From NCBI GenBank assembly GCA_029887765.1, contig JARXPF010000001.1, forward strand, positions 194,378-258,377: a DNA stretch of 64,000 nt, in the 5' to 3' direction. This document shows positions 22,669 through 60,589 of this stretch, one piece after another. A model generated the notes under the pieces. That model was not told where the DNA came from. It saw only the letters and a program-made list of their open reading frames with translations, and ran no database searches. Positions within the stretch are counted from its first letter, which is position 1; every line of letters begins with the position of its first letter. The translations under genes and the position numbers were made by a program. This DNA comes from Thermoproteota archaeon. Lineage in GTDB: Archaea; Thermoproteota; Methanomethylicia; Methanomethylicales; Methanomethylicaceae.

Positions 22669-22866
22669 ATGTTAATATGTCCTGAATGTGGAGGAGACAT
22701 GAGATTTCAGTCATCAATTAGAAGATATGTATGTTTAAGCTGTGGACTTTCATTAACAAGAGATGAAATTGATGAAATAAAAGCAAAATACAAAAGTGAA
22801 ATAAAAAATGAAAAAGAAGAAATAAAAAAAGAGTACATAAAGTGGTGGACTAAATCTAAGAAATAA
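22669..22866 (+). CDS. C4 zinc-ribbon protein with Lys/Glu-rich tail
   Basis: CPECGG..CLSCG, 65 aa. Confidence 0.4.
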   Translation: MLICPECGGDMRFQSSIRRYVCLSCGLSLTRDEIDEIKAKYKSEIKNEKEEIKKEYIKWWTKSKK

Positions 22867-22909
22867 AACTTTTATTTTTTATTTTAAATCTTTTAAAAGG
22901 GGATTTCTT

Positions 22910-23665
22910 ATGAATTTTATATATATCTTAGGGACTGCAGGTTCTGGTAAATCAGCTCTTACAGCAGCTCTTTTAGATATATTAAGAGCTGATGATCTTA
23001 ATGTTATAGCAGTCAATTTAGATCCTGGAGTAAGATGGCTTCCATATGGAGTAGATGTAGATATAAGAGATTATATAAATTATGATAGAATTGCTGAAGA
23101 ATATCAACTTGGCCCAAATGGAGCATTAATTGCTTGTGTAGATTCTGCAATAAATTATATTAATGAAATGAGAAAAGAAATTGAAAAATTAGAGCCAGAT
23201 TATGTATTAATAGATACACCTGGACAAATGGAGCTTTTTGCTTATAGAGATTCAGGAACTTTAATTACATCTATGCTATCAAAAGAAGGATATTCAATAA
23301 TTTTTCTAGCAGATTCGATTTTCTTAAATAGACCTTCTGATTTTGTATCAATTATGCTATTATCATATTCAGTTCACGTTAGATTTCGTGCTCCTCAAAT
23401 AAATTGTATTTCAAAAATAGATTTACTTTCTGATGAAGAATTAAAAAAAGCATGTGAGTGGATTGAAGATCCAAATATTCTTAAACAAGCTTTTCTATCA
23501 GAAGGAGGAGATCTTAAAAGAGAAATTTCTGAAAGAATTTTTGAATCTATAATGGAAATGGGAGGACCAGGAGAATTTATATTTATCTCATCCTATAGTG
23601 GACAAGGAATGGATGATCTCTACGCTCAAATACAGCGAATCCATACCGGAGGAATTAACATTTGA
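22910..23665 (+). CDS. GPN-loop GTPase
   Basis: GTAGSGKS Walker A, QLGPNGAL GPN motif, DTPGQ. Confidence 0.75.
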   Translation: MNFIYILGTAGSGKSALTAALLDILRADDLNVIAVNLDPGVRWLPYGVDVDIRDYINYDRIAEEYQLGPNGALIACVDSAINYINEMRKEIEKLEPDYVLIDTPGQMELFAYRDSGTLITSMLSKEGYSIIFLADSIFLNRPSDFVSIMLLSYSVHVRFRAPQINCISKIDLLSDEELKKACEWIEDPNILKQAFLSEGGDLKREISERIFESIMEMGGPGEFIFISSYSGQGMDDLYAQIQRIHTGGINI

Positions 23666-24519
23666 TGAATGAAATACAAAATTTAGCTAAACAAATTCAT
23701 AATTTAGAAAATTTACTTAATAAAAACTATTCAAAATTTAATGAACTAAAAAATAAGAAAAAAGAAATAATAGAAAAATTAAAATCAATTAATGAAAAAA
23801 TTTTAGAATTAAAAAATAATAGAGATGAGATAAATAAAAAAATTAGTGAAAAAAAGAAAATAAGAGAAGAACTAAATAATAAATGTAAAGAAATTAATGA
23901 AAAAATAAAAATTTTATTATTAAATAAAAAAGAACTTCTACAATTAGTTAAAGATAGTGAAGTTAAACTTTTAAATCAATTAAAAGAATTAGATTGGAAA
24001 CAACAAACAACACCTCTATCACTTGAAGAAGAAAAAAGACTTTTACAAAAAAGGAGTGAAATTGAAAGAAAATTATTAGTTTATAAACAAGTAAGAGAAT
24101 TAGATCAAAAGATTTCATTATTTAAAAATGAAGTAGAAAAATTAAGAAATGAAGCAAATTCTACTCATAATGAAATAATAACATTAGCTGAAGAATCAAA
24201 AGAATATCATGAAAATATATTAAAGTTAATTGAAGAAAAAAATTCAATAAAACAAGAATTGAATAAAATTAATGAAGAAATAATTTCATTAAAAAATATT
24301 ATAATTAATCAAAAAAGAGAGTTGCATGAATTAAATTCAAATTATAAGAAATTAATGGAAAAAATTATGGAGAAAAAAGTAGAAGAACTTGCTGAAGAAA
24401 CAAAGAAAATTTTTAAAACACGAATGGAATTAGCTAAAAAAGCTGAAGAAAAGATGAAGAATGGAGAAAAACTAACTTTTGAAGAATTCATGGCTATTTT
24501 ATCATTTAAAAAAGATTAA
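23662..24519 (+). CDS. coiled-coil protein (K/E/N-rich)
   Basis: 285 aa with heptad-like low complexity, overlapping the GTPase stop. Confidence 0.4.
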   Translation: MMNEIQNLAKQIHNLENLLNKNYSKFNELKNKKKEIIEKLKSINEKILELKNNRDEINKKISEKKKIREELNNKCKEINEKIKILLLNKKELLQLVKDSEVKLLNQLKELDWKQQTTPLSLEEEKRLLQKRSEIERKLLVYKQVRELDQKISLFKNEVEKLRNEANSTHNEIITLAEESKEYHENILKLIEEKNSIKQELNKINEEIISLKNIIINQKRELHELNSNYKKLMEKIMEKKVEELAEETKKIFKTRMELAKKAEEKMKNGEKLTFEEFMAILSFKKD

Positions 24520-24585
24520 GGCAATTTAAATTAATATATTTAAATTTTTCCATAATGATTTTAAATAACATATTATAAAATTTTA

Positions 24586-25653
24586 TTGAATATAATGAAA
24601 AGAAGAATTCTCATATTAAGTGTAGATAAAGATAATGACATAGGTAGGGTTACTGGACTATCTACACCTATAATTGGAAAGAATGAAGTTCTTTCAGCAG
24701 CAATTCAATTTGCTATTAAAAGTCCAGAAGATTCTGATGTTAATTCTATATTTGCAGCAATTAATATCTATGAAACTTTGGTAAAAGAAGGGCAAGAATG
24801 TGAAATTGCTATAATAACTGGTTTACCAGAAGGAGGCTATAAATCAGATTTAAAAATTTCATCAGAAATGGATAAAGTTTTACAAGTATTTAAAGCAGAT
24901 GGAACTATATTTGTGAGTGATGGAGTGGCTGATGAACAAGTTGTTCCAATAATACAATCAAAAATACCAATAATATCTATAAAACGCACTTTTGTTCAAC
25001 AAGAAAAAAGTGTAGAAGAAACATATATTTTATTATATAGATATTTTAAAAAACTTACAGATCCTGAATATTCAAAAATTGCACTTGGAGTTCCAGGAAT
25101 TGTAATATTCATTGTTACAATATTATATTTACTTAATTTATTGAATTATGTTGCAATCCTATTGGGATTAGTATTTAGTCTAGTATTAATTGTAAAAGGT
25201 TTTAATATTGATAAAATGGTAAAATCAGCATGGTCAGAATCTCCAATTAAATTAATAACTTCATTAATTGGAGTAATTGTTTCAGTTATTGCATTTTATC
25301 GAGGTGTAGGAGTTGCATTAATAGAAATTCCACTTTCATGGGAAAATTTGAATTTATTTATAGGATTAGTATTATTAAATACCATAGACTTATTGGCCTT
25401 AGGATTTGGAGTTTATATTATAGGAAGACTAGTAGTTAAGTATTTAGATGAAGATCCAAAGATATGGCATGAAATAGTATCCCTAGTAGGGATATTTTTT
25501 ATAAGACAAATAGTAATAGAAGCTTCTATTATTATAAGAGATCCAAAAGCAAGTTTAATACCATTTTTATTAGCTGCTGGACTAGGAGTCTTAGTATGTG
25601 GTTTTCTTGTAACAATATTTTCAATAAAACCTATATTCTTTAAAAAAAATTAA
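24586..25653 (+). CDS. DUF373-family membrane protein
   Basis: Soluble N-domain (ILSVDKDNDIGRVTG) plus a C-terminal polytopic membrane domain. Confidence 0.5.
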   Translation: MNIMKRRILILSVDKDNDIGRVTGLSTPIIGKNEVLSAAIQFAIKSPEDSDVNSIFAAINIYETLVKEGQECEIAIITGLPEGGYKSDLKISSEMDKVLQVFKADGTIFVSDGVADEQVVPIIQSKIPIISIKRTFVQQEKSVEETYILLYRYFKKLTDPEYSKIALGVPGIVIFIVTILYLLNLLNYVAILLGLVFSLVLIVKGFNIDKMVKSAWSESPIKLITSLIGVIVSVIAFYRGVGVALIEIPLSWENLNLFIGLVLLNTIDLLALGFGVYIIGRLVVKYLDEDPKIWHEIVSLVGIFFIRQIVIEASIIIRDPKASLIPFLLAAGLGVLVCGFLVTIFSIKPIFFKKN

Positions 25654-26763
25654 GTTATTACATTAGTTAAACCATAATTCTTTACCATTTCTAAAGCTCT
25701 TCTCCATTCCATAGCTGTTAATCTTCTATTAATTTCAGGAATTTCACGAGCTCTCCAATGTGGAGTATATTGATCCATTAAATTAACTCTAGTATTATGA
25801 CCAAGTTCTTTTGCTATAAATTCTAAAATTTTTGATAAACAACAATCTAAATGATTTGGAAGAACTAATATTCTTATAAGTAATTCTCCATTTAACTTAG
25901 CAAGTTTTAAATTTCTAGTTATTATCTCCATATAATTAGGAGCGTCTGAAATTCTTTTTGCACATTCATTATTTCCATATTTAAAATCAATTTTATAAAT
26001 ATCAACAATACCTCTTAATAATTCTGCAGCTTCTATAGTATAATAACCATTTGTATTAAAGAATACTGGCATATTCTCTTTTTCATATAAAAGAACCCTA
26101 AGCCAAAATGGAATATGAGGTATTGGGTCTCCTCCTACCCAATTTTGATTTCTACATCCTCTTCTTCTTGCATCATCTATTAATAAAGCCAATTCTTTTT
26201 CAGTATAATATTCTCCTTTTTCAAATTGTTGACTTATAGTCCAATTTTGACAATGAAGACATTTAAAATTACATCCCAAGCTAATTCGGCCGGCTATGAT
26301 AGCCGTATACCGTAAAGCTTGGGACTATTTCAGGTTCTTCTCCCATATGGTCAAAGTATGATGATACAAACATTTCCTTTCCAATTCTACAATATCCAAG
26401 ATTGTTTTCTATTCTATTTTTCATACATCTATGTTCACAAAGAATACAACATTTTAAAATTTCATCAGCTATAATGGATTTAAGATGAAGTAATGAAAAT
26501 TTAGGAATAATTATTTCAGAGGGTTTAATACTTCCTTCATCTAATAATTTTTCTAATCTATTATATTCAATAATTGCTTTTTCATGTACTTTCCAAAGTT
26601 CTTTCAAGTCTTTAGTAGAAATTTCTTCTACAGCAATCATTCTAGCAATTTTAAATTTTGCAAGTTTCTTATTTTTTACAATATCTACATATCTTGGTAA
26701 TGCTTCCAAAACTTTTGGATCTTCAAGAGCAGAAACTGCATCTGGACGATAAAGAAACCACAA
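25650..26763 (-). pseudogene. PflX-like radical SAM enzyme (COG1313-like), split by a frameshift into 26281-26763 (N-terminal part) and 25650-26324 (C-terminal part)
   Basis: N-terminal part has CILCEHRC..GYCRIG; C-terminal part starts LGCNFKCLHCQNW (CxxxCxxC). The two frames overlap over 26281-26324 around the palindrome ggccggctatgatagccg. Confidence 0.55.
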
Positions 26764-26774
26764 ATTTACCCCCC

Positions 26775-27773
26775 CTAAATAATAATATTTATCTCATTAT
26801 TACAATATACACATCTCTTACCTTTAAGTTTAATATCTAATATTTCAAAACCAAGTCTTTTTATTACAACATTATTACAATTAGGACAATAAGTATTTTC
26901 ATATCTATGACCAGGAACATTTCCTAAATATACATATTTCAATCCAAAATCCTTAGCAATTCCATAAAATTCTTCTAATAATTTTATTGAAGGAGGGGGA
27001 CTTTCAGTATACATATAGCTTGGGAAAAATCTTAAAATGTGTAATGGAATAGATTCTCCAAGTTCGTCTAATATCCATTTTACTAATTTAATAAATGCTT
27101 CTTTTGAATCTCCTCCTCCAGTTACAATTAAATTTGTTATTTCAATAAATATTGATTTACGCTTCATTTCCATTAATGCTTGATATATAGGTGAAACATC
27201 TGGAACTTTACAAAACTTTTTATAAAAATCAGGATCACCACTGCCTTTGAAATCTACAGTAGCAGCATTAAGATAACCATTTATTAAATCAATTGCTTCT
27301 GGCGTAATATAACCATTAGTTACAAAAGTATTATAAATTCCTTCTTTATGTGCTAATTTAGCAGTATCATAAGCATATTCAAAGAATATAGTAGGCTCAG
27401 TATAGGTATAACTAATACATTTACATTTATACATTTTTGCCATTTTAACAATTCTTTCTGGTGGAATATCTTCTCCTTTTACTTCTCTATCTTGACTTAT
27501 ACACCAATTATCACAAAAGACACATCTAAAATTACAACCCACAGTAGCTAATGAAAAAGTTAATGCTCCTGGATAAAAATGAAAAAGAGGCTTTTTTTCT
27601 ATTGGATCAATAGCATAAGATACAGCCTTACCATAGACTAATGTATAAAGAGTCCCATTTCTATTTTCTCTAACTCCACATATACCTCTTTTTCCAGGAT
27701 GAATAGTACATCTAAAACCACATAATTTACACTTTACAATAGAATTTAATTTTTCATATAGCATTGCTTCCAA
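26775..27773 (-). CDS. amrS: AmmeMemoRadiSam-system radical SAM enzyme (PflA-like)
   Basis: CKLCGFRC..GICGVRENRNG..VGCNFRCVFCDNW. Confidence 0.7.
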   Translation of the reverse strand: MEAMLYEKLNSIVKCKLCGFRCTIHPGKRGICGVRENRNGTLYTLVYGKAVSYAIDPIEKKPLFHFYPGALTFSLATVGCNFRCVFCDNWCISQDREVKGEDIPPERIVKMAKMYKCKCISYTYTEPTIFFEYAYDTAKLAHKEGIYNTFVTNGYITPEAIDLINGYLNAATVDFKGSGDPDFYKKFCKVPDVSPIYQALMEMKRKSIFIEITNLIVTGGGDSKEAFIKLVKWILDELGESIPLHILRFFPSYMYTESPPPSIKLLEEFYGIAKDFGLKYVYLGNVPGHRYENTYCPNCNNVVIKRLGFEILDIKLKGKRCVYCNNEINIII

Positions 27774-32516: not shown

Positions 32517-33074
32517 ATGGAATTTGTAAGAAGTTTCATTGCTATAGAGTTAGATGAAGATGTAAAAAATAAAATTATGGAATTTGAAAATAGATTAAAA
32601 GAATGTAAATCAGAAATGAAGTTTGTTGAAAAAGAAAATTTACATATAACTATAAAATTTCTTGGTGAAATAAATATGAAATTATTAGAAAATATTTATG
32701 AAGAAATTGAAAAAATAAAAGAAGAAAAATTTACAATAAGTGTAAAAGGAGTAGGTGTATTTCCTAATGAAAGGTTTATGAGAGTAATATGGGTTGGAGT
32801 AGAAGAAGGAAAAGATAAAATTTTAAAAATTCAAAAAGAAATTGAGGAAAAATTATTAAAATTTGGTTTTTCAAAAGAAAAAGATTTTATTCCTCATATA
32901 ACTGTAGCAAGAGTGAAATCAGTAAGTAATAGAAATGAAATTTTAAAAATTTTTGAAGAATTTAAAGAGAAAAATTTTGGAAAATCATTAATAGATAGAA
33001 TTACTTTAAAGAAAAGTATACTTACACCAAAAGGCCCGATATATTCAAATTTAAAAGAGGTGTTTTTTAGATAA
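32517..33074 (+). CDS. ligT: 2'-5' RNA ligase / 2H phosphoesterase LigT
   Basis: Two HxT/S motifs (HITIKFLG, HITVARV). Confidence 0.75.
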   Translation: MEFVRSFIAIELDEDVKNKIMEFENRLKECKSEMKFVEKENLHITIKFLGEINMKLLENIYEEIEKIKEEKFTISVKGVGVFPNERFMRVIWVGVEEGKDKILKIQKEIEEKLLKFGFSKEKDFIPHITVARVKSVSNRNEILKIFEEFKEKNFGKSLIDRITLKKSILTPKGPIYSNLKEVFFR

Positions 33075-34444
33075 TGAAAGAAATATTAGAAGAGGTATTG
33101 AAAAGAGTAAAACCAAAAGATGAAGATTTTATAAAAATAGAAAAAATATTTGAAAAAATTAAAAATAGAATTATCCAAAAAGCTGAAGAATTAGGAATAA
33201 ATGTTAAAGTAGAAATAGAAGGTTCTATAGCAAAAGGGACTTGGCTTTCTAATGATAAAGATATTGATATATTTATAGTATTTCCATTAGGAACAAAAAT
33301 TGAATTTGCTAAAGAAATTGGATTAGAGCTTGCAAAATATGGTGTTGAAGAAAATTGGAAATTAGGTTATGCTGAACATCCATATATTGAGGCAAAAGTT
33401 AATGATTATAAAATTGAAATAGTGCCTAGTATTGAAATGAGAGAAGGAGAGAGACCACTTACAGCTGTAGATAGAACACCATTACATACAATTTTTATAA
33501 AAAGTAAAATGAATGAAGAAATGAAAGATGAAGTAAGATTATTGAAACAATTTATGAAAGGTATAGGAGTATATGGTGCTGAATTAAAAATAGGAGGATT
33601 TTCAGGATATCTTTGTGAACTCCTTATACTATATTATGGAAGTTTTGAAGAAACTATAAAAAATGCTGCAAAATGGAAACCAAAAACTGTAATAGATTAT
33701 ATGAAGTATTACAGTAATGAAGAATTATGTAAAAAAATATTTGATAGTCCATTAATAGTAATTGATCCTATTGATATGAGAAGAAATGTTGCAGCTGCAG
33801 TAACATTACAATCTTATTCAACTTTTATAGCAGCTTCTAAATATTTTTTAAAAAAACCAAATATTGATTTTTTCTTTCCAAAAGAATTTGAAGTAAAATC
33901 AGAAGATATATTTAATGAATTAAAGAAAAGAGGTACAAATATAGCAATAATAAAAATTAATTGTCCAAAAATTCCTCCAGATATTCTTTGGGGAGAAATT
34001 AATAGAACTTTAAATAAATGTGTTAAACTTTTAGAATCTTATGATTTTCAAGTCTTAGATTATAAAGCTTGGAGTGATGAAGAAAATAATATTTTTTTAA
34101 TTATGGAATTGGAAAGAGATAAGTTAAGAAATGGAAAAATTCATTATGGACCAAAAATATGGTGGGATGAAGAAAAATTTTTAAATAAACATTTAGAAAA
34201 AGCTCTTGCAGGACCTTATATAAAAAATGAAAGATGGTATGTTGAAGTAAAGAGAAAATATACTACAGTAAGAGATTTATTAATAAATGAATTTGGAAAA
34301 CTTCAATTAAGTAAAGATATAATGAATGAAGTTAAAAAAGGATTTTCAGTTTATATAAATGAAGAGATAGGAAAAGAACTTAATCCTGAATTTGCAAAGG
34401 ATTTATTAAAATTTTTAAAAAAGAGACCATTATGGTTGAATTAA
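33074..34444 (+). CDS. cca: CCA-adding tRNA nucleotidyltransferase (archaeal class I)
   Basis: 456 aa, GSIAKGTWLSNDKDIDIF nucleotidyltransferase motif; 1-nt overlap with ligT. Confidence 0.85.
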   Translation: MKEILEEVLKRVKPKDEDFIKIEKIFEKIKNRIIQKAEELGINVKVEIEGSIAKGTWLSNDKDIDIFIVFPLGTKIEFAKEIGLELAKYGVEENWKLGYAEHPYIEAKVNDYKIEIVPSIEMREGERPLTAVDRTPLHTIFIKSKMNEEMKDEVRLLKQFMKGIGVYGAELKIGGFSGYLCELLILYYGSFEETIKNAAKWKPKTVIDYMKYYSNEELCKKIFDSPLIVIDPIDMRRNVAAAVTLQSYSTFIAASKYFLKKPNIDFFFPKEFEVKSEDIFNELKKRGTNIAIIKINCPKIPPDILWGEINRTLNKCVKLLESYDFQVLDYKAWSDEENNIFLIMELERDKLRNGKIHYGPKIWWDEEKFLNKHLEKALAGPYIKNERWYVEVKRKYTTVRDLLINEFGKLQLSKDIMNEVKKGFSVYINEEIGKELNPEFAKDLLKFLKKRPLWLN

Positions 34445-42324: not shown

Positions 42325-42998
42325 AGAAAATTTTCCTATTTTTGAAATATGAGTTGCAATGATGAAGTTTGCATAATGAAGTTTATCCTTGGAGTTGTAA
42401 ATTGTTCTCAGTGCAGTAATTAAATTGGCTTAACATTATTGAAGAAGTGTCTAAAGGATTTATAATAAGCCGAAGTCCAAAACCATTAATTAAAATCAAT
42501 TAGCTCGGTCTTTTTAAGAATTTAATGACTACTAGATAGCATTTAGGGCTATTTGACTAAAAGTTGCTAAGATTTTTATCTAATACTATAGGATATAGTT
42601 AATGTGGTCCCCTTAGATAAGCTATATGCGGCTTGAGGTCTGTCTAGTCTTTCTACTCCTGACTTTTGTTGCATGACTTCACGAGGCTTATTTAAGTAGT
42701 ATATTTCGTGGTTTTAGTTTCAAAACATTCATGATGCTCGTAACTCTACTTGTCATAATCTTATCGAGTTTTAGGATTTACGATCTCCTGCTCAGAAGCT
42801 TTACGTTGGAGCTCAGTATTTATCTTACTCACAGTAGTCTCAATCATAATGTCAGTAGCTCTGGGCATAGCTGTCGCTGCTGGGCATAATTCTAGGTCTT
42901 CGTTGGGCTTGGCTTTTTTTAGGGGCTATATGCAGTCTAGGCTTAATGAGAAGCGTTGACGGAGGCTCGTCTTTAAGGTCTGGAAAGTCGATTATGGA

Positions 42999-43265
42999 AT
43001 GAGTTTACCTCTAACCTCTGTAATCTTCGCTCTGATAAACATAGTCAATTACTGGAGTCCAATTACATCAAGGTGGGAGATAGCTTGGTGGATGTCCATA
43101 CATATCTTAGCATACTTCGCCTTCAGATACTTAGCCGAGGCTATAAGGGAGACATTAGACATTTATACTTCAGCTTCACTACATGAAGGCGTAATGAGTG
43201 CTTATACGTTTCTATCCATTTATACAAGCAAATTGATCCTGAATATCAGTCTATTCATCAACTGA
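42999..43265 (+). pseudogene. membrane-protein gene remnant inside the GC-richer segment
   Basis: 88-aa hydrophobic ORF. Short hydrophobic ORF fragments in other frames lie upstream (about 42733-42990). Confidence 0.3.
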
Positions 43266-43571
43266 TTCATCTTCTTCTACCTTCTAACCATCTTCTTCCA
43301 TGAATATGAAAGCCATGACTATGAATCTAAAGAAAGTAGCCCTCCTTGTATATTAAGAGTCAAAAATGGAAGTTATAATTAATGTGTAAAAATATTTGAG
43401 AACATCCATTATAAGTGAATCTATGAATAAAGAGCTTCCATATTCTTTAATATAATTGTAATTATATAGAACAATTAATTATATTTCCATTAACATAATA
43501 CTCTCAAATAAGCTTAATTTATAAAGACTGTTACTCTAGAAAAACTTAAATGTTTATCAAGAAGTAATTTT

Positions 43572-44676: not shown

Positions 44677-44769
44677 GGCCCGGGTAAGATTATAAAATCC
44701 CCGAAGGGTAGTGGTTATCCCGGGGGCCTGTGGAGCCCCAGTTCGCGGGTTCGATCCCCGCCCCGGGCC
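44677..44769 (+). tRNA. tRNA-His (anticodon GUG) with encoded G-1 and an extra roughly 19-nt insert after position 9 (putative non-canonical intron)
   Basis: G-1 then GCCCGGG acceptor, T-arm GCGGG-TTCGATC-CCCGC, anticodon stem GGGGC/GCCCC with loop CTGTGGA, 3' CCCGGGC plus discriminator C. The insert is 44687-44705. An 8-bp leader/trailer stem gccggaag/cttccggc lies at 44666-73 and 44781-88. Confidence 0.65.
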
Positions 44770-44788
44770 CTCGCAACCACCTTCCGGC

Positions 44789-55026: not shown

Positions 55027-57180
55027 TGGAGGGTTAAAGAAATTAAAATAGAAGAATTACAAATTCCAAATGAAGCTAAAAATCTTTTATTAGAATTAGG
55101 AATAAAAGAACTATATCCTCCTCAAGAAGAAGCTATAAAAATAGGAGTATTAGATGGAAAAAATGTTTTATTAGCAGTTCCAACAGCATCAGGAAAAACT
55201 TTAGTAGCAATTTTATGTTCAATAAAACATGTTTTAGAAAAAAAAGGGAAAGTGTTGTATTTAGTTCCATTAAAAGCTTTAGCAAATGAAAAATTTGAAG
55301 AATTTAAATCTTTAGAAAAAATTGGAATAAAGGTTACATTTTCAACTAGTGATTATGATAAAGTTGATCCTTCATTAGAAAATTATGATATTATAATAGC
55401 AACAAATGAAAAAGCTGATTCTATTATAAGACATAAACCAAATTGGATAAATAAAATATCATTAATAGTAGTTGATGAAATTCATTTATTAGGAGAACCT
55501 TCAAGAGGTCCAACATTAGAAGTATTATTAACTTCACTTAGAATATTAAATCCAAATGCTCAAATTATTGCTCTAAGTGCAACAATAAAAAATGCTTCTG
55601 AAATTGCAGAATGGTTAAAAGCAATACCTATTAATAGTAATTGGAGACCAATTCCACTTAAAGAAGGAGTGTTTTTAAGAGATACTATATTATTTAAAAA
55701 TGGAAGTATTGTTAAAATATATGAAAAAGAAAAAGATTCTGTAATTGCATTAACTTTAGATTGTTTAAGACAAGGTGGTCAAGTATTAATATTTACAGGA
55801 AGTAGAGCTTCTGCAGTTTCTCTTGCAAAAAAACTTTCTGAATCAGTAGGAAGATTTTTGAAAAATGAAGAAATAAAAAAATTAATGGAATTATCTTCTA
55901 AAATACTTGGATTAGGAGAAAGAACTAGAATTTCTGAAACTCTTTCTAAACTTATTTCTTATGGAGTAGCTTTTCATCATGCTGGTTTAACTTATGAACA
56001 AAGAAAACTTATAGAAAATGCCTTTCGCTCTTCTTTAATAAAATGTATATGTGCAACTCCAACTTTAGCTGCTGGAGTAAATCTTCCTGCAAGACGTGTT
56101 ATAATATATGATTATAAAAGATATGAACCAGGAGTTGGTCAAGTAGAAATACCAATTATGGAAGAAAAACAAATGGCTGGAAGAGCAGGAAGACCAAAAT
56201 ATGATAAAGAAGGAGAGGCTATTTTAATAGCTAAAAATGAAAATGAAATGGAATTTCTTTTTGAAGAATATGTACTTGCAAATCCTGAAAAAATATGGTC
56301 TAAATTAGGCACTTCTTCTTCATTAAGAGCTCATATTTTAGCAATAATAGCAACAAATTTAGTAAATTATGAAGAAGAAATTTTTGAATTTTTTACTAAA
56401 ACATTATTTGCTCATCAATATGGTCTTAATAATTTTAATAAAAAAATTTCAAATGTATTAAATTTATTAATTAAAGAAGATTTAGTAGAAAATTCAAAAG
56501 GAAAATTAAGAGCCACAAAATTTGGAAAAAGAGTAGCTGAATTGTATATAGATCCAGAAACTGCTATAATAATAAGAGATGGTTTAAATTCTCCACCATT
56601 ATCTACAATGGAGTACTTACTTCTAATATGTCAAACTCCTGATATGCCAGGTCTTCCATTTAGAAAAAAAGATCTCTCAATTATTAATGAATTTATTAAT
56701 AATGAAATACAATATGAAGATCCAGAATTTTTAGCAAAATTAGAAAAAATTAAAGTTGCACTTATGTTAAATAGTTGGATAAATGAAGAACCTGAAGATA
56801 AAATAATTGAGAAATTTGATGTAGGTTCAGGTGATATTTATTCATATGTAGAAACTGCTAAATGGTTATTACATTCAGCTTATGAATTAGCAAAATTATT
56901 TAATTATGAGAAACATTTAATCCCACTTAATAAATTATACTTAAGAATTGAAAATGGAGTTAAAGAAGAATTAATCCCATTAGTAAGTTTAAGAGGAATT
57001 GGAAGAGTAAGAGCAAGAGCACTTTATTCAGCAGGATTTAAAACAATTGAAGATTTAAGAAAAGCTGAAATTTCTGATCTTATAAAAATTCCACAAATTG
57101 GTCCTGAGACTGCGAAGCTTATAAAAGAACAAGTAGGTTATAATGAAATAAAAAAGCAATTAACTATAGATAATTGGTGA
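55027..57180 (+). CDS. hel308: Hel308/Hjm (Ski2-like) DNA helicase; start codon unresolved
   Basis: In-frame coding begins right after the MCM TAG and includes the Q-motif (YPPQ) and motif I (VPTASGKT). The first canonical start is GTG at 55252, downstream of motif I. Downstream motifs (DEIH, SAT, TPTLAAGVNLPA, QMAGRAGRP) are present. Confidence 0.8.
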   Translation, partial: WRVKEIKIEELQIPNEAKNLLLELGIKELYPPQEEAIKIGVLDGKNVLLAVPTASGKTLVAILCSIKHVLEKKGKVLYLVPLKALANEKFEEFKSLEKIGIKVTFSTSDYDKVDPSLENYDIIIATNEKADSIIRHKPNWINKISLIVVDEIHLLGEPSRGPTLEVLLTSLRILNPNAQIIALSATIKNASEIAEWLKAIPINSNWRPIPLKEGVFLRDTILFKNGSIVKIYEKEKDSVIALTLDCLRQGGQVLIFTGSRASAVSLAKKLSESVGRFLKNEEIKKLMELSSKILGLGERTRISETLSKLISYGVAFHHAGLTYEQRKLIENAFRSSLIKCICATPTLAAGVNLPARRVIIYDYKRYEPGVGQVEIPIMEEKQMAGRAGRPKYDKEGEAILIAKNENEMEFLFEEYVLANPEKIWSKLGTSSSLRAHILAIIATNLVNYEEEIFEFFTKTLFAHQYGLNNFNKKISNVLNLLIKEDLVENSKGKLRATKFGKRVAELYIDPETAIIIRDGLNSPPLSTMEYLLLICQTPDMPGLPFRKKDLSIINEFINNEIQYEDPEFLAKLEKIKVALMLNSWINEEPEDKIIEKFDVGSGDIYSYVETAKWLLHSAYELAKLFNYEKHLIPLNKLYLRIENGVKEELIPLVSLRGIGRVRARALYSAGFKTIEDLRKAEISDLIKIPQIGPETAKLIKEQVGYNEIKKQLTIDNW

Positions 57181-60495: not shown

Positions 60496-60589
60496 GCGGC
60501 CGTAGTCTAGCATGGTCTAGGACGTCGGCCTTCCATGGATAGCCCGAAGAACGCCGAGGACCCGGGTTCAAATCCCGGCGGCCGCACCA
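60496..60589 (+). tRNA. tRNA-Gly (anticodon UCC) with canonical 16-nt intron after position 37; CCA encoded
   Basis: Acceptor GCGGCCG/CGGCCGC, anticodon stem TCGGC/GCCGA, loop CTTCCA, intron at 60536-60551, T-arm CCGGG-TTCAAAT-CCCGG. Confidence 0.8.

Follow-up and report, generated by a model that had tools for sequence, protein, structure and literature searches.

Why is a radical-SAM gene from a Thermoproteota archaeon of the family Methanomethylicaceae laid out in two reading frames that meet at a GC-rich palindrome? The gene lies on the minus strand of a 64,000-nucleotide (nt) stretch of DNA (contig JARXPF010000001.1, positions 194,378 to 258,377; the whole stretch is hereafter the window), with its Cys-rich N-terminal domain and its radical-SAM core in different open reading frames (ORFs). 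The region 26763..25650(-) is very probably one radical-SAM gene into which a 22-nt intron of the archaeal bulge-helix-bulge (BHB) type is inserted at 26306..26285. This assignment is built on the RNA structure, its conservation and covariation, the exact restoration of the frame and the phyletic pattern.

A radical-SAM gene in two overlapping frames

The split gene consists of two ORFs in the window.

26763..26281, minus strand: ORF 1, 160 amino acids (aa), Cys-rich N-terminal part, ending in ...GEEPEIVPSFTVYGYHSRPN and a stop codon (...PSFTVYGYHSRPN and stop)
Open from 26324, with a listed TTG at 26279, to 25650, minus strand: ORF 2, starting LGCNFKCLHCQNW..., radical-SAM core

ORF 2 belongs to the radical-SAM superfamily, with a match to Radical_SAM (PF04055) of 79.1 bits against a Pfam cut-off of 29.5 (E-value 5.6e-22). 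The overlap of the two open frames spans 26324..26281. These ORF positions confirm an earlier reading of the DNA (the original prediction), which had placed the Cys-rich and radical-SAM parts in different frames that are both open across 26281-26324. The GC-rich palindrome that it reported in an otherwise AT-rich gene is also present: positions 26291-26305 form a perfect inverted repeat with 7 bp in each arm and a 1-nt centre, and the plus strand reads GGCCGGCTATGATAGCCG at 26288-26305. The GC content is 27.5% in the window, 28.4% in the gene and 59% in the 22-nt insert. GC-containing 7-bp hairpins of this kind occur three times in the window, against 0.55 expected and a maximum of three in block shuffles, and the palindrome by itself exceeds chance only modestly. 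A stretch of 81 nt around the junction folds with -31.3 kcal/mol (z = -5.9), a value reached by none of 200 dinucleotide shuffles. At gathering thresholds, Rfam matches nothing at the split-gene locus and only four tRNAs in the whole window.

Anatomy of the predicted intron and its splice product

The RNA that surrounds the overlap is predicted to fold into an outer helix, a central 4-bp helix, two bulges and an inner hairpin. The elements are as follows, with arrows at the predicted cuts.

26307..26763, minus strand: exon 1, with the TTG start at 26763-26761, 152 codons and the U of the Phe153 codon; Cys-rich domain to ...GEEPEIVPSFTV; gapless alignment
26285..26306, minus strand: putative BHB intron, 22 nt, RNA 5'-A CGGCUA UCA UAGCCG GCCG AA-3'
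25650..26284, minus strand: exon 2, with the UU of the Phe153 codon, then SLGCNFKCLHCQNW..., the CX3CX2C radical-SAM core and the stop codon
26273..26325, minus strand: whole splicing motif, from the minimum free energy (MFE) fold, RNAalifold (23 sequences), pair counts and single folds
26325-26316 with 26282-26273, minus strand: outer helix between exon 1 (GUCCCAAGCU) and exon 2 (AGCUUGGGAU), from the MFE fold
26315-26313, minus strand: unpaired UUA, from the MFE fold
26309..26312, minus strand: 5' strand of the central helix, CGGU at 26312-26309 in exon 1 (codons ACG GUA), paired with intron GCCG at 26290-26287
26308-26306, minus strand: 5' bulge AU↓A, cut between 26307 and 26306
26305-26291, minus strand: inner hairpin CGGCUA-UCA-UAGCCG, the palindrome reported earlier, with covariation at two pairs
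26283..26290, minus strand: 3' strand of the central helix, GCCG at 26290-26287, and bulge or loop AA↓UU at 26286-26283, cut between 26285 and 26284

This layout is that of the archaeal BHB motif, as in tRNA genes. The 5' exon pairs with the intron's 3' end to give the central helix, and a bulge that contains a splice site follows each strand of this helix on its 3' side. A strict hBHBh' scan of both strands of the window recovers exactly 26285-26306 at this locus, and it also recovers the intron of a tRNA-His gene. In the strict register, h is UUA/UAG, H is CGGU/GCCG, the bulges are AUA and AAU, and h' is CGGCUA/UAGCCG, so that two 3-nt bulges are set across a 4-bp helix as in substrates of the tRNA-splicing endonuclease EndA. 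For the introns of cbf5 genes, cleavage has been placed between the second and third nucleotides of the bulge (PMC2738675). When the same rule is applied here, 22 nt are removed and an ORF of 1092 nt results, which encodes 363 aa.

The predicted product has the length of about 100 intact homologues, which come mostly from Bathyarchaeia and are ∼50% identical to it. The alignment across the junction is gapless (window GEEPEIVPSFTVFSLGCNFKCLHCQNW versus, for example, GEEPELVPSFTVFTLGCSFRCLHCQNY), and the original prediction that one gene had been artificially divided between two frames is upheld. Alignment of the fused product with intact homologues, as had been suggested, places the insert exactly, in the codon of the invariant Phe153. 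The junction codon U↓UU restores F153, and the predicted mature junction ...ACG GUA U↓UU AGC UUG GGA... encodes ...T-V-F-S-L-G-C... directly upstream of the CX3CX2C iron-sulfur/SAM motif (C157-x3-C161-x2-C164). The predicted spliced RNA is ...ACGGUAU-UUAGCUUGG..., or ...CUUUACGGUAU↓UUAGCUUGGGAU... as DNA, with the junction peptide SFTVFSLGCNFK. The first and last bases of the intron are purines, and the mature reading must be GUA UUU AGC; no other pair of cuts yields this product, which fixes the splice sites to the nucleotide. In the unspliced frame, a UAG stop (26283-26281) is located immediately beyond the 3' end of the intron.

The interruption in related genomes

Orthologues were sought by protein in one genome per GTDB species and by DNA pattern in metagenomes. 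The protein scan found 16 loci from Methanomethylicota, Methanomethylicaceae or Methanomethylicales with 65-91% identity, all of which (16/16) carry an insert at the identical codon. The metagenome scan yielded 17 true matches with an insert and one chance match. Approximately 30 readable homologues from Bathyarchaeia, Hadarchaeota and other groups have no insert, and the distance from GEEP to GC in them is an uninterrupted 45 nt. The question raised with the original prediction, whether relatives are intact, thus has a divided answer, with interruption in 16 of the 16 Methanomethylicota loci and continuity in the ∼30 more distant homologues. The closest relatives of the locus are metagenome-assembled genomes (MAGs) of Methanomethylicota. 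The three closest database proteins are fragments of 209-218 aa with 80-89% identity, and their contigs contain the same two-ORF arrangement. Among the best 120 matches in a database of 5.8 billion clusters, no uninterrupted protein exceeds 53% identity.

The inserts vary in length. The commonest is 20 nt, and inserts of 21, 22, 23, 33 and 34 nt are also found, so that all three classes modulo 3 are represented. The two inserts that would keep the frame, one of 21 nt (L090) and one of 33 nt (L004), each contain an in-frame stop. Excision between ...ACGGUAU↓R and R↓UUAGC... restores the frame every time and opens 211 downstream codons with no further defect. The case for an RNA-level intron is strongest here, since a single structural rule mends every one of the three frame relationships, which also disfavours both recoding and gene decay. 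The hairpin occurs as CGGCUA/UAGCCG, CGGUC/GACCG, CGACU/AGUCG, CGACC/GGUCG, CGAC/GUCG and CGGAUU/AGUCCG, and it is longer in the introns of 33-34 nt.

The 17 genes with the intron group together as one clade in a neighbour-joining tree of 48 homologues, with identities of 66-99% inside this clade and of 39-59% to the intronless genes. A single gain in the ancestor of a Methanomethylicota (Methanomethylicaceae-like) clade, with retention ever since, is the probable history of the intron. The match to L083, a Methanomethylicia homologue farther removed (40% identity), was one contiguous segment.

Selection on the RNA structure and on the protein

In an alignment of 23 distinct splice-region sequences, the central helix is invariant (23/23). 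Two pairs of the hairpin vary, one as AU (14 sequences), GC (7) and GU (2) and the other as CG (19), AU (3) and UA (1), with no unpaired cells and with compensatory changes in 7 and 4 sequences, respectively. Of all cells, 89.7% are paired, a share that falls to 18-46% if the 3' partners are shifted by 1-3 columns, and the covariation score of 0.132 (0.083 in shuffles) is reached by none of 500 shuffles. RNAalifold independently returns the same outer, central and inner helices with a 3-nt bulge, and single-sequence MFE folds adopt the same architecture in five of six diverse relatives. The structure is thus kept by compensatory change rather than by sequence.

The constraint extends into the exons. 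Among 17 orthologues that were ascertained by protein search and not by the DNA pattern, 168 alignment columns hold an invariant amino acid with degenerate codons, and only six of these use a single codon throughout. Four of the six are the contiguous codons 151-154 (ACG GTA TTT AGC), which span the splice site. Elsewhere, 64-80% of the codons for conserved residues differ between the window and more distant orthologues. Since codons 151-154 are synonymously frozen, the exon bases of the central helix and bulges are under RNA-level selection. Selection therefore acts on the RNA structure both in the intron and in its flanking codons, and selection for splicing is able to freeze synonymous codon positions in exons. 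The protein is constrained as well. Both halves are intact in 27 distinct orthologues, with no other stop or frameshift, and amino acid identities of 66-99% with synonymous sites near saturation indicate strong purifying selection.

Alternative explanations and points against the intron

The arrangement could instead reflect a genuinely split gene, whose Cys-rich domain and radical-SAM core are made as two associating polypeptides of 160 and 209 aa. An in-frame TTG is available in ORF 2 at 26279, and gene callers report two proteins in the three related contigs whose gene calls were inspected. This TTG is, however, replaced by CTG or TCG in several relatives (L003, L014, L015 and L087), and a core translated from it would start three residues ahead of the cluster's first cysteine, without the conserved TVF strand. 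Two separate proteins would also provide no expected selection to hold the insert exactly removable or to preserve the half-codons U and UU of the invariant Phe153. Homologues outside the clade are never split, contrary to the possibility raised with the original prediction that two proteins are the normal state, and a two-polypeptide gene is improbable.

Hairpin-stimulated programmed ribosomal frameshifting or translational bypass, in which the ribosome itself joins the two frames, would account for the openness of both frames over 26324..26281 and for the stable hairpin inside the overlap. The +1 shift that the original prediction had entertained is excluded by the orthologous inserts of 20, 21, 22, 23, 33 and 34 nt, which would need different events in different relatives (+1, -1 or, for the 21-nt and 33-nt inserts with their stops, read-through), whereas excision at a fixed position always restores the frame. 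Programmed frameshifting has a fixed direction and a conserved slippery site, neither of which is found here, and the take-off and landing codons are unmatched (GUA-U... versus ...AA-UUAGC). The insert changes by compensatory base pairs and not as coding sequence. Moreover, the product would contain approximately seven extra residues between the β-1 strand and the CX3CX2C loop, where the intact homologues have none. Recoding of this kind is highly improbable.

Neither an error in sequencing or assembly nor a recent insertion that inactivated the gene could be excluded from a single window, and the unlike composition of the insert (59% against 28% GC) would agree with either. Such an origin is the least credible, because the same codon is identically interrupted in 33 independent assemblies from different samples, which excludes a sequencing or homopolymer error, and because 27 distinct orthologues are intact in both halves and under strong purifying selection, which excludes pseudogenization. 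The interpretation offered with the original prediction is retained in its view of a single split gene with the hairpin as the functional cause and a conserved partner gene, and is abandoned in all three of its mechanisms (error, pseudogenization and frameshifting), among which an RNA-level intron did not figure.

Some points weigh against the BHB intron. Splicing is inferred and not observed. In the MFE fold, the 3' splice site is located in a 3×4 internal loop (UUA/AAUU) beside a 7-10-bp exon-exon helix and not in a clean 3-nt bulge. In the fully canonical register, the outer helix has just 3 bp and is weaker in relatives with a UUC codon. The metagenome pattern fixes the flanks, so that variants with other flanks are undetectable by it. 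Finally, neither EndA nor an RtcB ligase was identified by Pfam among 40 ORFs of the window, which included all those of 140-210 aa and of about 450-500 aa, and a 64-kb window says little about the EndA and RtcB content of the whole genome. As to the 3' site, the pair across the loop is U-A in 11 sequences, U-G in 5 and C-G in 3 and is unpaired in 4, a variation that hints that the loop register forms. The 3' site is a relaxed BHB, or a bulge-helix-loop (BHL)-like form.

Proposed splicing mechanism

In the pre-mRNA, CGGU of exon 1 and GCCG of the intron would form the 4-bp central helix, the GC-rich palindrome would form the inner hairpin, and exons 1 and 2 would pair into the outer helix. This arrangement of helices would leave one splice site in a short bulge on each strand, AU↓A on one and AA↓U on the other. 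EndA would then cut between the second and third bulge nucleotides on both sides, and an RtcB-type ligase would join the exons. The spliced mRNA would be the translated form, with the frame restored ahead of the CX3CX2C motif. Without splicing, only the 160-aa N-terminal fragment could be made.

Splicing that is conditional rather than constitutive seems unlikely. If it does occur, the two registers at the 3' site, a bulge beside a weak 3-bp helix and a 3×4 loop beside a long helix, where a U-A/C-G pair covaries across the loop, could form a temperature- or factor-dependent switch. Such a switch would pick between the full radical-SAM enzyme and the 160-aa Cys-rich protein alone and would constitute regulated alternative mRNA splicing in an archaeon.

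Relation to known introns

The only BHB intron inside a reading frame in the accessible literature is that of cbf5, which was found in 2002 and occurs in the crenarchaeal Desulfurococcales and Sulfolobales (PMC2738675). Its splicing has been demonstrated by cDNA and by in vitro cleavage with EndA (Watanabe 2002; Yoshinari 2006; Yokobori 2009, PMC2738675). For the cbf5 introns, the terms unconventional and relaxed are used, and the EndA associated with them is hetero-oligomeric (PMC2738675, PMC10485636). Schwarz 2020 named cbf5 as the only other example beside HVO_1309 (PMC7714728), and a 2023 review considered that more such introns are probably still to be found (PMC10485636). Searches of open-access papers turned up no earlier report of a BHB intron in a radical-SAM gene or in Verstraetearchaeota.

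The radical-SAM intron resembles the cbf5 intron in that it is short, interrupts a protein-coding ORF with a partly relaxed BHB-like motif and would be cut between the second and third bulge residues. Both introns are inserted between the first and second bases of a codon in the catalytic core, and both are confined to one clade of Thermoproteota, which implies gain or loss. The host genes differ, however, with a PflX-like radical-SAM enzyme here and a pseudouridine synthase in cbf5, as do the hosts, Methanomethylicota here and Desulfurococcales or Sulfolobales there, and splicing is shown for cbf5 and inferred for the radical-SAM gene. The cbf5 family is defined by the cbf5 gene and its catalytic Asp codon, whereas the present intron interrupts a Phe153 codon before CX3CX2C. 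The two introns have no sequence relationship, which indicates independent acquisition, and their likeness is one of mechanism and not of family membership. The radical-SAM intron is thus an independent case in a different gene and a different lineage, the methyl-reducing Methanomethylicota.

The intron of HVO_1309 in Haloferax volcanii is likewise cut from an mRNA, and not from tRNA or rRNA, by the splicing endonuclease, but it is 46 nt long and lies in the 5' untranslated region, leaves the reading frame uninterrupted and belongs to a euryarchaeon with an α2-type enzyme (PMC7714728). Archaeal tRNA BHB introns, those of the window included, share with the radical-SAM intron the 4-bp exon-intron central helix, the 3-nt bulges, the inner hairpin, a similar size range and an AA↓N 3' bulge. 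Unlike them, the radical-SAM motif is embedded in an mRNA without a tRNA body, and its 3' site can adopt the 3×4 loop register. The outer helix of the radical-SAM intron is built from two coding segments, and codon choice is therefore constrained.

In eukaryotes, HAC1 and XBP1 mRNAs undergo unconventional cytoplasmic splicing by IRE1 and RtcB/Trl1, and the XBP1 intron is 26 nt long. The parallels to the radical-SAM gene are a short mRNA intron, a protein endonuclease that acts at stem-loops, joining by a tRNA ligase and a frame change that decides the product. HAC1 and XBP1 differ in their use of IRE1 and another recognition motif and in serving as a regulated stress switch, whereas regulation of the radical-SAM intron is not in evidence.

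The radical-SAM introns, with their six lengths, their clear covariation and 23 distinct sequences of the splice region, form a natural test set for what EndA needs outside tRNA. The gene was called as two fragments in the inspected contigs, and a search for split ORFs that flank a BHB motif could recover it in Thermoproteota MAGs, perhaps together with further spliced genes that have escaped notice.

The encoded enzyme and its genomic neighbourhood

The product of the spliced gene, a radical-SAM enzyme that begins with a Cys-rich domain, is presumably of the COG1313 type. None of the NCBIfam cut-offs is reached by it, with 32.8 bits against the glycyl-radical enzyme activase model PflA, TIGR02493 (cut-off 231.75), and 38 bits against the AmmeMemoRadiSam model TIGR04337 (cut-off 220), and "PflX-like" is a loose label for it. 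In 11 of the 16 relatives (L002-L004, L014-L016, L018-L021 and L033), the radical-SAM gene starts with ATC or ATT, two codons past a stop.

One gene is located directly upstream of the split gene.

26775..27773, minus strand: radical-SAM enzyme of the AmmeMemoRadiSam system, TIGR04337 289.8 bits (cut-off 220)

The two genes are separated by 11 nt on the same strand and so probably form one operon. All 16 loci with the intron have the partner upstream, as do many Bathyarchaeia loci that lack the intron. This conserved adjacency supports the functional pairing that the original prediction had proposed for the two genes.

In relatives L002 and L003, a block of genes for a Zn-ribbon transcription factor, a GPN-loop ATPase, DUF7121 and DUF373 follows the radical-SAM pair on the same strand. 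The window has this block (22669-25653) in inverted orientation, so that block and split gene converge, and lacks the MoCF_biosynth gene that relatives carry between the two. In L001, the closest metagenome relative, a Cas12f1-like/TnpB-type gene (PF07282; L001 2572-3825, minus strand) is located just downstream of the split gene; the window has no counterpart there.

tRNA introns and other features of the window

Two tRNA genes of the window contain introns with BHB motifs.

60536-60551, plus strand: tRNA intron, 16 nt, canonical BHB with central helix CUUC/GAAG and bulges CA↓U and AA↓C
44687-44705, plus strand: intron of tRNA-His (G-1, 44677-44770), 19 nt, BHB with central helix CGGG/CCCG and bulges UA↓A and AA↓G

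The canonical BHB motifs of these tRNA introns, which share the AA↓N 3' bulge with the mRNA intron, suggest that the organism uses BHB splicing. The tRNA-His intron occupies a non-canonical site between nucleotides 9 and 10, and Rfam and ARAGORN align just the part of this gene 3' of the intron. The tRNA gene at 60496-60589(+) was called tRNA-Trp(CCA) by ARAGORN. BHB excision leaves an anticodon stem UCGGC/GCCGA and a mature loop CUUCCAC with the anticodon UCC (Gly), which fits the GCG... acceptor stem, and the Trp call is therefore probably wrong.

No second mRNA intron was identified among the best 40 of 87 hits of the strict hBHBh' scan of the window; the other hits among these 40 are AT-rich and chance-like, and GC-rich helices are found only at the radical-SAM and tRNA-His introns. 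A Hel308-like helicase gene at 55252 was considered as a second split gene and was rejected, since its missing N-terminal part lies upstream in the same frame without a canonical start. In this gene (55028-55252, plus strand), approximately 70 N-terminal residues, including Walker A, are encoded in frame upstream of the first ATG, GTG or TTG. The sequence GGAGGG at 55028-55033 is followed 8 nt later by ATT at 55042, which suggests an AUU start. As the missing part is in frame, the apparent truncation likely results from an AUU start after GGAGGG and not from an intron. Non-canonical AUU/AUC initiation may be common in the lineage.

A region of ∼1 kb beside tRNA-Glu (42330-43330) has a GC content of 35-45%, compared to 27.5% for the genome. 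It contains no ORF of at least 60 aa except 42999-43265, which has no Pfam match, and no Rfam match was found in it even at E ≤ 1. A decayed integrated element or a structured RNA not yet described could account for the region. At 32517-34444(+), a LigT/2',3'-cyclic-phosphodiesterase-like gene (PF02834) abuts the gene for the CCA-adding enzyme, and the two form a small RNA-end-processing pair.

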